A DNA stretch of 64,000 nt, taken from positions 20-64,019 of the forward strand of contig JACPFQ010000001.1 in NCBI GenBank assembly GCA_016182875.1, written 5' to 3'. Numbering within the stretch: the stretch's first letter is position 1; each line of letters starts with the position of its first letter. Below are positions 60,365 to 62,990 of the stretch, piece after piece. Made by a program: the position numbers and the translations under genes. The stretch is from Candidatus Doudnabacteria bacterium. GTDB taxonomy: Bacteria; Patescibacteriota; Doudnabacteria; UBA920; O2-02-FULL-48-8. A model generated the notes under the pieces. That model was given only the letters and a program-made list of their open reading frames with translations. It was not told the DNA's origin and ran no database searches.

Positions 60365-61023
60365 TGCCTGTCGGTGAGACGATTCTAATGTCTCACCGCC
60401 GGACTGATTTGGACGAAAGAATCCGTGTCTTCAAGACGAGGAGCGGCATGTCCACTCAGTCCGTCCTTTTCTCAAGCATAGACAATCGCATTTGCGAGGA
60501 CCCCGGACTCCGATCCGGGGAACGAAGCAATCTAATCTTGAGAAAGGGTGCGATGTTGCGATTGTTCTTGAATGGACGAAGGGACATGCGCACCCTCGTG
60601 GCGGACGAAAATATTTATGTCCTTTACTGGACGAATGAGGGAGTGTCCGCCACGAAATTTTAAACCGGAGGAATCAAGTTTGGTGAGACGAGGTGCGAGG
60701 TGTCCGCTAGGAGGACGAACTTAGTGGTGTCTCACCACCGGACTGAAAGACGAATCCAAGGATGTCTCTTGTAGACGATGGGTCGTATGTCATTTCAGTC
60801 CGGCCTTTTCCAAATGATTCATCTACGAAATAGAACTCCCCTCTCCTGGAGAGGAGAGGGGTCGGGGGTGAGGTGGATTATTCATTTGGAAAGGGTACGA
60901 GAGTTTCATTGTCCATATAGGACGAACCACCGACTGTACCCTTTTGGCGGACGATTGATAGCATGTCTGAAGTAGACGAGCATGTCTTTGTCCGCTACCA
61001 CGTTCCTTTTCAAGGAGTGCGCC
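60365..61023 (+). ncRNA. candidate structured non-coding RNA array (about 8 stem-loop modules with conserved stems and variable loops) upstream of the recombinase gene
   Basis: stems GGTGAGAC/GTCTCACC, GTGGCGGAC/GTCCGCCAC, AGGGTRCG/CGYACCCT, CCGGACTGAAA/TTTCAGTCCGG; inner hairpins GTCY-N5-8-RGACGA; promoter upstream. Confidence 0.5.
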
Positions 61024-62283
61024 ATGAGCCGAATCATCGGAATCCGGCATCGCGTGAAGAAGACCAAGGACGGCGAGGCAAGGCCGACCCAGGTGGTTAT
61101 TGCGTCAAACGGCGAGACTGTCACCTATGACCTGGTGGATGAGAACGACGAGCTCGACTTCGTGCTCGGACGCTTCCCTGTCCGCTACCGCAAGGTTGCG
61201 GAGGACGAGGACCTCTCCGGCTTCATCCAGCGCCAGGTGCGCTGGCGCAAGCTCGACAAGCGCGAGAATCGCGAGCAGTACCCCGCCAATCTCGTGCGCC
61301 AGGACGGCAAAACCTGGCACCTGGCCACACACGTGCCGATCGCGTTCGACGGGTTCCAGCCCGGCGATACGGCAGCCATGGTCCTTGGCGGCTCTGGCGA
61401 CAACCTCGCCTACGCGCTGTCGCGGCGCGGCGAGGCAATCGGCGCCAAGGTCCTGCGCATCCCGCCGTTCCATCTCAAGGCCCAGCGCGGGGACGCGGAC
61501 CGCAAGGACGATGCGCTGCTGCTCACACGGCTGGCCGCGGAGAAGCCGGAACTGTTCTACGAAACCGGCCCCCGCGACCGTCACCTCATCTCCATCCGTG
61601 AAGCGTATCGCGCCCGCAAGGACGTGATGAAGCAGCGGATCGCGTGCGAGCAGCGCATCTTCGGCAACCTCCACGGCCAGATCTTCCGCAACGACGAAGG
61701 CCACTACCCCGAGGGTGCCATCGAGGATCTGTACAACAGAGCCAAGGCCAATGACACGATCCTGCAGAACCTCCTTGCGGAGGAGACCAGGCGGGAACGC
61801 GAGTTGGCAGAGGCGCTGGAAAGCTTCCCGGTGTACCAGCAGATCTTCGCGCCCATCGAGGAGTGCGGGATCATGACCGCAGCGCGGCTCATCGGCTCCA
61901 TCATCGACATCCGCAGGTTCGCAACCAAGTACAAGCTGGTGGCGTTCTGCGGCGCGCACGTGATGGCTGACGGCCGGTTCCCCAGGCGGCGGTCGGACGA
62001 AGTCGCCAACTGGAATCCGGAGGCGCGCCAGGCCTTGTATCTGCTGGGCGACCAGTGGAACCGCCGGCCGGGCTCGTACTGGGGCCAGAAGCTGCTGGCC
62101 AATAAGTCCAGGCTCAAGCAGCGCCACCCCGAACCGTTGCTGGTCGACGGCGTCATGAAGTACACTGCCGCGCACCTGCACCGCACCGCGCTGTGGCGTA
62201 CCGGCACGCAGTTCGTGCGTCATCTGTACGGCGCGTGGTGGGCGTGGCAACGGGGAATCAGCGCCAAGGAGGATGCTGCATAA
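61024..62283 (+). CDS. IS110-family-like DEDD/HhH recombinase (transposase)
   Basis: C-terminal IEECGIMTAARLIGSIIDIRRFATKYKLVAFCGAHV matches the IS110 Transposase_20 HhH pattern (GIG.ITAA.L..EIGDI.RF...L.AYAGL); central GAKVLRIPPFHLKAQRGDADRKDDALLLTRLA matches the IS110 DEDD region around KTDxxDA; AAGGAG Shine-Dalgarno; very G+C-rich. Confidence 0.65.
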   Translation: MSRIIGIRHRVKKTKDGEARPTQVVIASNGETVTYDLVDENDELDFVLGRFPVRYRKVAEDEDLSGFIQRQVRWRKLDKRENREQYPANLVRQDGKTWHLATHVPIAFDGFQPGDTAAMVLGGSGDNLAYALSRRGEAIGAKVLRIPPFHLKAQRGDADRKDDALLLTRLAAEKPELFYETGPRDRHLISIREAYRARKDVMKQRIACEQRIFGNLHGQIFRNDEGHYPEGAIEDLYNRAKANDTILQNLLAEETRRERELAEALESFPVYQQIFAPIEECGIMTAARLIGSIIDIRRFATKYKLVAFCGAHVMADGRFPRRRSDEVANWNPEARQALYLLGDQWNRRPGSYWGQKLLANKSRLKQRHPEPLLVDGVMKYTAAHLHRTALWRTGTQFVRHLYGAWWAWQRGISAKEDAA

Positions 62284-62990
62284 TGTGAGACGAGGAATCG
62301 ATTGTCCGTAATTTGGACGTACGCTAGGTTGTCTCACAACCGGATTGCAGAAACGATTCTGCAATCCGGCCTTTTCTTAAGATAAATCGCATTTGCGAGT
62401 GAAGGAACGTCAGACGTTCCGAAGCGAAGCAATCTATTTTGAGAAAGGGTACGAATGGTTCAGTGTCCTTACAGGACGAGGATTGTGTTGTACCCTCGTG
62501 GCGGACGAACATGTGTCTGTCTCTTGAAGACGATAACTGCTTTGTCCGCCACGAAATTTTAAACCGGAGGAATCAAGTTTGGTGAGACGACCATGCAGTT
62601 GTCCTCAATGGACGAATTTGGTGGTGTCTCACCACCGGACTGAAAGACGAACCCGAGGATGTCTCTTGTAGACGATGGGTCGTATGTCATTTCAGTCCGG
62701 CCTTTTCCAAATAATTCATCTATGAAATAGAACTCCCCTCTCCTGGAGAGGAGAGGGGCTGGGGGTGAGGTGGATTATTCATTTGGAAAGGGTGCGGGCA
62801 GGATCATGTCCTCACAGGACGATCGTTTCTTTGCACCCTCGTGGCGGACGATTTATTCGTTGTCCGTTGTGGACGAAGGATGTCGTGTCCGCCACGAAAT
62901 TTTTTGAATCGGAGGAATACCAAGCTTGGTGAGACGAAGGGCCCGCTGTCTCTCGAAGACGCTTCCTGAATTGTCTCACCGCTGGTCTAG
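62284..62990 (+). repeat. downstream structured-repeat array (about 10 modules, same stem families as upstream; includes a 253-bp near-identical copy of 60645-60897)
   Basis: direct sequence comparison of 62544-62797 with 60645-60897. Confidence 0.6.

Follow-up and report, generated by a model that had tools for sequence, protein, structure and literature searches.

The stretch of DNA analysed here, hereafter the window, comprises 64,000 nucleotides (nt) of a Candidatus Doudnabacteria genome (assembly GCA_016182875.1, contig JACPFQ010000001.1), which belongs to the candidate phyla radiation (CPR/Patescibacteria). Region 60336-63016 of its + strand very probably constitutes a complete TIGR-Tas locus of the stem-loop-array type. 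Fifteen full units and one truncated unit, all on the + strand, flank a tas gene coding for a protein of 419 amino acids (aa), with seven units and the truncated one located upstream of the gene and eight downstream. The units were identified as TIGR-Tas stem-loops because their family consensus, RACGA-N9-UGUY...RACGA-N9-UGU, with near-zero information at the nine spacer positions (150 units, 43 loci), matches the descriptions of Faure et al. (PMC12045711) and Xu et al. (bioRxiv 10.64898/2026.09.09.750476).

TIGR-Tas systems with stem-loop arrays are a kind already described in 2025-2026, and the published catalogue includes 20,096 tas loci. The match to this kind extends down to clade and box motifs; the Doudnabacteria locus is a clean example of it, and its identification adds no new biology. 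The locus is compact, complete and well bounded, with a predicted promoter, 15 units, a 419-aa, apparently dead TasR and a predicted terminator. An initial annotation, obtained by blind reading of the raw sequence, had described compensatory changes in the stems of the array and missed that the whole is a TIGR-Tas stem-loop array. Stem covariation by itself can be enough for such a reading to single out a TIGR array. TIGR arrays do not have the repeat conservation used by CRISPR finders, and the gene of this locus is still labelled 'transposase' in GenBank.

Stem-loop units and covariation of their stems

All units share one plan, consisting of outer stem, CGA (box C), nine variable nt, UG (box D), inner hairpin, CGA, nine variable nt, UG, and outer stem. 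As parsed, the 5′ arm ends in RAC and is followed by GA, nine variable bases and U, then by GUCY, a loop of 3-7 nt and RAC; the second half contains GA, nine variable bases and U, followed by GUY and the 3′ arm of the outer stem. The inner hairpin between the two spacers has 4-5 base pairs (bp), and box D contributes its invariant U as the tenth base of each spacer. A pattern scan of the region revealed a CGA-to-GU spacing of exactly 10 nt in all half-units, and each of the 15 units has CGA-N9-UG twice, with one degenerate box in four of them. The TIGRFinder rules for stem-loop arrays (10.64898/2026.09.09.750476) similarly include box C CGA, box D TG, and 9-nt spacers. The loops described as diverging in the initial annotation do diverge, but they had not been recognised as two 9-nt guide spacers per unit.

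Minimum free energy folds of both array regions are far more stable than those of shuffled sequences (z = -8.6 and -11.1), and recover the unit hairpins. Four stem classes recur in a fixed order, namely C (GUGAGAC), D (CCGGACUGAAAGAC), a long hairpin named L1 or L2, A (GGGURC), B (CGUGGCGGAC), and a linker of 28 nt, with the tas gene taking one of the linker positions. A covariance model built from the units of the window scores them at 38-59 bits on the + strand, and a scan with this model found no unit copies elsewhere in the 64-kb window. The units are the following:

60374-60396, + strand: M0, truncated first unit, class C, GTGAGACGA-TTCTAAT-GTCTCAC (weak model match at 60369-60401, 21 bits)
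60400-60463, + strand: M1, class D, with spacer A at 60417-60426 and spacer B at 60440-60449
60545-60596, + strand: M2, the 'unit C' of the initial annotation, class A, GGGUGC/GCACCC, spacers at 60554-60563 and 60580-60589, 3′ box D CG
60597-60654, + strand: M3, class B (CGUGGCGGAC/GUCCGCCACG), 55.9 bits
60683-60735, + strand: M4, class C (GUGAGAC/GUCUCAC)
60739-60803, + strand: M5, class D (CCGGACUGAAAGAC...GUCAUUUCAGUCCGG), guides almost the same as those of M12, 49.2 bits
60892-60942, + strand: M6, class A, GGGUAC/GUACCC, 52.7 bits
60944-60999, + strand: M7, class B, last unit before the gene
62285-62337, + strand: M8, class C, beginning 2 nt past the stop codon, second box C degenerate (CGU), 44.7 bits
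62446-62496, + strand: M9, the 'unit D' of the initial annotation, class A, GGGUAC/GUACCC, 58.2 bits
62497-62553, + strand: M10, class B
62582-62632, + strand: M11, class C, 55.2 bits
62636-62700, + strand: M12, class D, spacer B identical to that of M5 and spacer A identical at 8 of 10 positions
62789-62839, + strand: M13, class A, GGGUGC/GCACCC, first box C degenerate (CGG)
62840-62896, + strand: M14, class B, 59.4 bits
62929-62979, + strand: M15, last unit, class C, second box C degenerate (CGC), 49.3 bits

The pair of units from which the initial annotation started is M2 and M9. The stem AGGGTGCG/CGCACCCT is present in M2, but the interval 60560-60615 given for it lies about 15 nt too far right; the unit spans 60545-60596, with the arms at 60545-60552 and 60589-60596. 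The stem of M9 containing tGTACCCT was found as described, with AGGGTACGA at 62446-62454 and (t)GTACCCT at 62489-62496 (a pair also written AGGGTACG/GTACCCT). Alignment of 60376-61023 with 62285-63016 revealed that the two arrays are collinear, with the stems of M2 and M9 at homologous positions and a flanking scaffold that is otherwise identical (AAAGGGT[G/A]CGA ... [C/T]ACCCTCGTGGCGGACGA). Because the sites are homologous and lie in an otherwise identical context, the change from G-C to A-U represents a true double substitution of two paired positions, in agreement with the initial annotation. The same alternation recurs in the other two class A copies, GGGTAC/GTACCC at 60892-60942 and GGGTGC/GCACCC at 62789-62839. 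The alternation of GUCC/GGAC with GUCU/AGAC that had been noticed in the inner hairpins extends through the array as well, the fourth pair being C-G in eight units, U-A in six, and U-G in one.

Testing the aligned units for covarying pairs had also been proposed, and both pairing and double changes were well above slid and shuffled controls. Standard pairs fill 88.1% of the cells in the 15 window units, compared with 31-48% when the 3′ partners are slid by 1-3 columns, and double changes are present in 45 cells versus 6-17 with slid partners. Compensatory changes were found in 10 of the 14 pairs. RNAalifold, run unguided on a MAFFT alignment of the window units, predicted the same two helices.

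The window units are paralogues in four classes and hold few independent events; for this reason, 80 loci encoding relatives of the protein were searched. The covariance model gave 427 matches at E ≤ 0.01 in these loci, and nearly all of the 300 matches listed lie on the tas strand. The best 150 of the 427 matches, from 43 loci, were used as the family covariation set. In this set, whose alignment was fitted to the structure of the model so that counts lean towards it, standard pairs occur in 94.4% of the cells (at most 53% when slid) and double changes in 580 cells (at most 137 when slid); the margin is wide, and the window alignment, which was not fitted, gives the same picture. Compensatory changes affect 12 of the 14 pairs, with up to six pair types at single positions. 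None of 500 shuffles matched the observed pairing or covariation score, for the window units or for the 150-unit set. The C-G pair between box C and box D is invariant in all 15 window units and all 150 family units, and the first stem pair beside it is A-U in 139 of the 150 units, G-C in eight, G-U in two, and U-A in one. Of the ten outer-stem pairs, nine show compensatory changes.

The results for the window and for the 43 related loci favour selection acting on the helices, as the initial annotation had proposed for an RNA or cruciform structure. In the DNA, each helix likewise forms an inverted repeat, and weak reverse-strand matches to the model occur at the same sites, which would suit palindromes acting at the DNA level, such as a cruciform, repetitive extragenic palindromic (REP)-like elements or an array of inverted repeats bound by a protein. 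Nonetheless, several results point to an RNA read from the + strand rather than to a DNA cruciform. The strict unit motif was found 239 times on the tas strand and three times on the other strand of the 80 loci, and the motifs placed relative to tas lie upstream (120) or downstream (85) of the gene and never inside it. The RNA reading is preferred because the motif CGA-N9-UG is asymmetric, with CGA 5′ and UG 3′ of each spacer, because this strand bias follows the orientation of tas, because the model scores are weaker on the reverse strand of the window (14-25 bits), and because G-U pairs exceed A-C pairs (78 versus 34). A predicted promoter and terminator also bracket the region on the + strand. 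Palindromes acting as DNA are considered extremely improbable.

For a guide RNA, compensatory changes in the stems are the expected signature, because the stems must pair but are not read by sequence. The stems would only need to pair and could drift by compensatory changes, while the boxes, read by the protein, would stay fixed and the spacers would be free.

Other known kinds of element were also considered for the array. A CRISPR array, which would show identical direct repeats of ~25-36 nt alternating with spacers of about that size, was rejected: the units here are hairpins whose spacers have 9 nt. Tandem Repeats Finder reported no array in the TIGR region, because the units are not sequence repeats. 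Rfam at gathering thresholds detected only six tRNAs in the whole window, with nothing in the array region and no snoRNA family. Box C/D sRNA was rejected on this result and on the boxes, which are CGA/UG and not RUGAUGA/CUGA.

In a metagenome-assembled genome of another Candidatus Doudnabacteria (locus L080), three model matches at 3783-4082 on the - strand lie opposite to the tas strand, downstream of tas. They may belong to a second, convergently oriented array or gene.

The tas gene and its protein

The gene between the two arrays and its ribosome-binding site are located as follows:

61012-61017, + strand: ribosome-binding site AAGGAG, read from the sequence, 6 nt before the ATG at 61024
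61024-62283, + strand: tas gene, encoding a 419-aa TasR-type protein with a RuvC-like N-terminal domain, followed by a coiled coil and then by a C-terminal RNA-binding domain of Nop/IS110 type

The 419-aa protein passes the NCBIfam model NF052498 'TIGR-Tas system RNA-guided endonuclease' with 125.5 bits (cutoff 100). PADLOC gave no match for it. The sole sequence match in the PDB is 9MTY, the complex of TaTasR with tigRNA and DNA (E 5e-7 with the single sequence, 1e-21 with the family profile). Similarly, 9MTY is the best fold match (E 4e-11) of an AlphaFold (AF2) model built from 33 homologues (pLDDT 90.7), followed by the IS621/ISCro4 recombinases and then by TasH complexes, and Nop56/58-fibrillarin is a marginal fold match (E 0.3). 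Over residues 3-406, the protein shares 49% identity with a protein on Candidatus Buchananbacteria RIFCSPHIGHO2_02_FULL_56_16 scaffold_15087 (locus L026), whose locus contains 11 CGA-N9-UG units according to a strict regular expression. Faure et al. (PMC12045711) cite this contig to illustrate a TasR whose RuvC is inactivated.

The N-terminus reads IGIR(8)HR, versus IGID in IS110 and TasR proteins, and R8 is at least 90% conserved in the 33 homologues. Strand β1 contains no acidic residue, and Arg occupies the position of the first catalytic Asp, as assigned by motif. Only this first RuvC catalytic position was mapped, the IS110 profile not aligning across the RuvC insertion. The AF2 model has strands at 4-8, 22-28 and 31-37, an insertion of helix and β-sheet at ~38-112 (roughly 75 aa), a strand at 116-120, and a long helix at the end of the protein. 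By its modelled strand order the insertion would lie between β3 and β4 of the RuvC domain.

The GenBank/nr name of the protein is 'transposase [Candidatus Doudnabacteria bacterium]', and an insertion sequence of the IS110 family, that is, an RNA-guided transposase whose flanking hairpins would be bridge RNA or terminal structures, was weighed as an alternative. The Pfam models PF02371 Transposase_20 (20.8 bits) and PF01548 DEDD_Tnp_IS110 (15.9 bits) match the protein weakly, the IS621 and ISCro4 recombinases are the second-best structural matches, and the GC content of the gene (0.65) is far above that of the host (0.48). However, both Pfam matches are below gathering (21.3 and 29, respectively), and the curated IS110 model NF033542 fails with 41.1 bits against a cutoff of 140, whereas the TIGR-Tas model passes. 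The first aspartate of the DEDD site is replaced by Arg. Both sides of the gene carry single-loop units with two spacers each, 15 in total, and not one bridge RNA of ~180 nt, and the absence of further unit copies in the scan of the window also argues against an insertion sequence. In addition, published work, PMC12045711 among it, places the CPR protein clade in TIGR-Tas. An IS110 element is thus highly improbable.

The GC content of the tas open reading frame (ORF) is 0.649, compared with 0.498 in its own arrays and 0.482 in the rest of the window. Similarly, the tas ORF is above its flanks in 45 of the 46 related loci with full flanks (median difference +0.10). This excess could come from amino-acid composition, recent transfer or another cause. 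An antisense ORF of 419 aa at 61105-62364 (- strand) overlaps nearly all of tas and is probably a by-product of the high GC.

Predicted function and possible turnover of the guides

A single transcript is predicted to run from a sigma-70-like promoter through seven units, tas, and eight units to an intrinsic terminator:

60336-60364, + strand: sigma-70-like promoter TTGACA-17 nt-GATAAT, a pattern match only, agreeing with the consensus at 11 of 12 positions, ~10 nt ahead of the first unit
62981-63016, + strand: predicted intrinsic terminator, 13-bp stem followed by UUUUUUA, after M15

Each unit would be a tigRNA precursor, processed into single units near the stem bases. CCUUUU follows M1, M5, M6, M7 and M12, which is consistent with the CUU boundary motif of processed units in the preprint 10.64898/2026.09.09.750476. 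As in published relatives, a TasR dimer would bind one processed unit. Spacer A would pair with one DNA strand, and the neighbouring stretch of the opposite strand would pair with spacer B. The resulting 18-bp site, read along a single strand, would be spacerA + reverse-complement(spacerB), as deduced from the 8-nt 3′ overhangs reported for TaTasR. The composite target is thus spacerA(1-9)+revcomp(spacerB(1-9)), and the example for M12 is ACCCGAGGATACGACCCA.

By analogy with published relatives, the complex most likely binds without cutting and blocks transcription. The first RuvC catalytic position is Arg, as in CsTasR, for which Xu et al. (10.64898/2026.09.09.750476) describe R8, an RuvC insertion of ~80 aa between β3 and β4, no cleavage, and guide-dependent repression. 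The spacers of CsTasR have 10 nt, pair over 9 nt, and are separated by a 5-bp stem, according to the same preprint. A role as repressor, through RNA-guided DNA binding and repression without cleavage, therefore seems moderately probable by this analogy. Dead TasR-type proteins are of interest as small programmable DNA binders that do not need a protospacer adjacent motif (PAM).

Targets were searched as rc(A)/B pairs within 8-14 nt in either order, and as contiguous A9+rc(B9) with a gap of 0-2 nt. Three matches with three mismatches were found, versus 2.2 expected from shuffled spacers. In viral and metagenome collections an exact 18-mer is expected about once by chance (rough estimate); the same false-positive point for target scans of large collections is made in the preprint 10.64898/2026.09.09.750476. 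According to the literature, natural targets of such systems are generally not known.

Several observations weigh against a TIGR-Tas locus with a repressor function. The other 61 kb of the window contain no 18-bp target with up to two mismatches. In four half-units a box is degenerate: M13 has CGG as its 5′ box C, the second box C reads CGU in M8 and CGC in M15, and the 3′ box D of M2 is CG. The published unit model accounts neither for the long hairpins L1 and L2 nor for the conserved linkers. The Pfam Nop model PF01798 did not match the protein, which is linked to the Nop fold through its resemblance to TasR and TasH in structure and profile. Residual nuclease activity is possible, given that the NCBI model carries the name 'endonuclease' and that one catalytic residue was mapped by motif. 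The locus is known here from its sequence, with transcription, processing and binding predicted or deduced from relatives.

A variant in which the guides lead a dead TasR to rRNA, tRNA or mRNA, like box C/D sRNAs, would agree with the unit topology, which is that of box C/D sRNA, with the lack of a DNA target in the window, and with a speculation in PMC12045711 that the CPR clade is an intermediate step towards box C/D RNA-modification systems. Published structures and assays of CsTasR (10.64898/2026.09.09.750476) show instead binding of double-stranded DNA (dsDNA) and repression at the DNA level, and TaTasR was inactive on RNA substrates in published work. Furthermore, the six tRNAs of the window contain no exact 9-nt complement to the spacers, and two matches with one mismatch compare with ~1.4 by chance. 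RNA targeting is very unlikely, and DNA remains the preferred target of the guides.

The two arrays, 60376-61023 upstream and 62285-63016 downstream, are collinear copies of a super-unit of ~690 nt. Their scaffold is 97-100% identical, with 37 of 37 positions in the linker (stem ends included), 98 of 102 in L2, and 9 of 9, 15 of 15 and 7 of 9 in the junctions. The spacers of five of the six homologous unit pairs show random-like identity (32 of 100 positions), and homologous units also differ in inner loops and inner-stem pairs in five of the six. M5 and M12 keep 18 of 20 spacer positions, and spacer B of M4 and M11 keeps 8 of 10.

The related loci include 111 same-locus unit pairs, in 22 loci, with at least 22 of 24 identical positions in the outer scaffold. 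Per-spacer identity of these scaffold-identical pairs is bimodal: most values are random-like, no spacer matches at 6 of 9 positions, and twelve match at 7-9 of 9, versus 5 of 4226 at 7-9 of 9 in control pairs with low scaffold identity. Three short Logan contigs encoding the identical protein have the same sequence and break inside the repeated L2 hairpin, giving no guide variants to compare.

Duplicated scaffolds with mostly unrelated guides represent a natural comparison for guide turnover. The arrays might be products of an undescribed, cassette-type turnover of guides, although we consider this unlikely; alternatively, the scaffold could be under strong purifying selection or be subject to gene conversion. 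If true, cassette turnover would imply active replacement or targeted diversification of a guide cassette in a fixed scaffold, and would bear on how TIGR arrays acquire spacers, a question that the literature calls open.

Additional hairpins, borders and comparison with known systems

In addition to the units, the arrays contain long hairpins and linkers:

60465-60547, + strand: L1, long hairpin CCUUUUCUCAAG...CUUGAGAAAGG with an internal hairpin and no canonical unit, from fold and alignment
62370-62448, + strand: L1′, copy of L1 with the same flanks and an unrelated internal hairpin, from the array alignment
60804-60894, + strand: L2, long hairpin CCUUUUCCAAAUGA...UCAUUUGGAAAGG around CCCCUCUCC-UGGA-GAGGAGAGGGG, identical to its copy at 98 of 102 positions
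62701-62791, + strand: L2′, copy of L2, from the array alignment
60655-60682, + strand: linker AAAUUUUAAACCGGAGGAAUCAAGUUUG, which separates class B from class C units and recurs at 62554-62581, with a diverged copy at 62897-62928
62340-62369, + strand: hairpin with a perfect 13-bp stem, whose loop contains AAACGA, followed by CCUUUUCUU (also given as CCTTTTCTT), with a terminator-like score

The long hairpins L1 and L2 stand between class D and class A units. Both copies of L1 keep their flanks (AATCGCATTTGCGAG ... CGAAGCAATCT), yet they hold unrelated perfect inner hairpins. A motif search of the 80 related loci did not find the flank motifs of L1, and conservation of L1, L2 and the linkers does not extend to other loci. 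The long hairpins may serve as a processing scaffold or be decayed units. In the linker, GGAGG precedes by 8-9 nt a UUG/GUG at the beginning of each class C unit, and the first two linker copies are identical; this motif may be a remnant resembling a ribosome-binding site, a signal for processing, or coincidental. Because the hairpin at 62340-62369 occupies the place expected for a class D unit, it may represent a collapsed unit; alternatively, it may act as an attenuator separating the gene and M8 from the remaining downstream array.

Upstream of the array, at 60314-60364, two near-consensus promoter-like sites overlap back to back. The + strand site, TTGACA-17-GATAAT, faces the array, and the - strand site, TTGTCA-17-TATAAT with an upstream TG, faces the gene of an MraY-like glycosyltransferase. 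The neighbouring genes, all on the opposite strand, encode a family-4 glycosyltransferase (probably MraY), a D-Ala-D-Ala carboxypeptidase, and an amidohydrolase. Elsewhere in the window, short tandem repeats of 7 or 14 nt (ATTCCAT, AATTTCT, CTTTTCCCTTTACC, TTTTACCCTTTACG) are present at 12875-12907, 22076-22105, 32056-32090 and 43788-43818, and are unrelated to the TIGR locus.

Similar to the described TasR systems of the CPR clade (CsTasR of Ca. Staskawiczbacteria and the Buchananbacteria TasR), the Doudnabacteria locus belongs to a CPR host, encodes a single protein, and has arrays on both sides of the gene and on its strand. Box C CGA, box D UG, the box-to-box interval of 10 nt with nine variable positions, the hairpin of 4-5 bp between the spacers, and variable, covarying outer stems are common to these systems, as are Arg at residue 8 and a large RuvC insertion between β3 and β4. 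CsTasR is longer, with 547 aa compared with 419 aa here. The strict four-class higher-order repeat, L1 and L2, and the conserved linker do not appear in the available descriptions of the CsTasR and Buchananbacteria systems.

With the systems that have dual-repeat arrays, represented by TaTasR (9MTY) and SpTasH (9W04), the locus shares the C-G pair between the boxes, and the protein shares a coiled coil and a Nop-type RNA-binding domain; TaTasR and SpTasH belong to its best structural matches. However, dual-repeat arrays contain two short conserved repeats (edge and loop) and give tigRNAs of 36 nt, whereas here variable palindromic stems replace the edge repeats, and their box C is CCA instead of CGA. 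TaTasR and SpTasH cut DNA, while the protein of the Doudnabacteria locus does not have the first RuvC aspartate. Dual-repeat Tas proteins possess a C-terminal Y/H processing loop, as described in 10.64898/2026.09.09.750476, and the protein analysed here ends in a long helix.

The IS110/IS1111 elements (IS621, 8WT6) also possess a RuvC-like domain, a coiled coil and an RNA-binding domain, and the guide loops of their bridge RNA pair with both DNA strands and are flanked by extended helices. Their single bridge RNA has two loops, for target and donor, in contrast to the many single-loop units of the array. In IS110/IS1111, an active DEDD site and a serine Tnp domain catalyse recombination, whereas the protein studied here fails the curated IS110 model.

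Archaeal and eukaryotic box C/D s(no)RNAs have the same topology of terminal stem, box, guide, box′, internal hairpin, box, guide, and box′, and the Nop5 and Nop56/58 systems also have a Nop-fold protein that dimerises on a coiled coil. Their boxes are RUGAUGA/CUGA and form kink-turns (K-turns) bound by L7Ae, whereas the boxes of the Doudnabacteria units are CGA/UG. Box C/D guides comprise 10-21 nt and target RNA for 2′-O-methylation by fibrillarin, while the spacers here have 9 nt.

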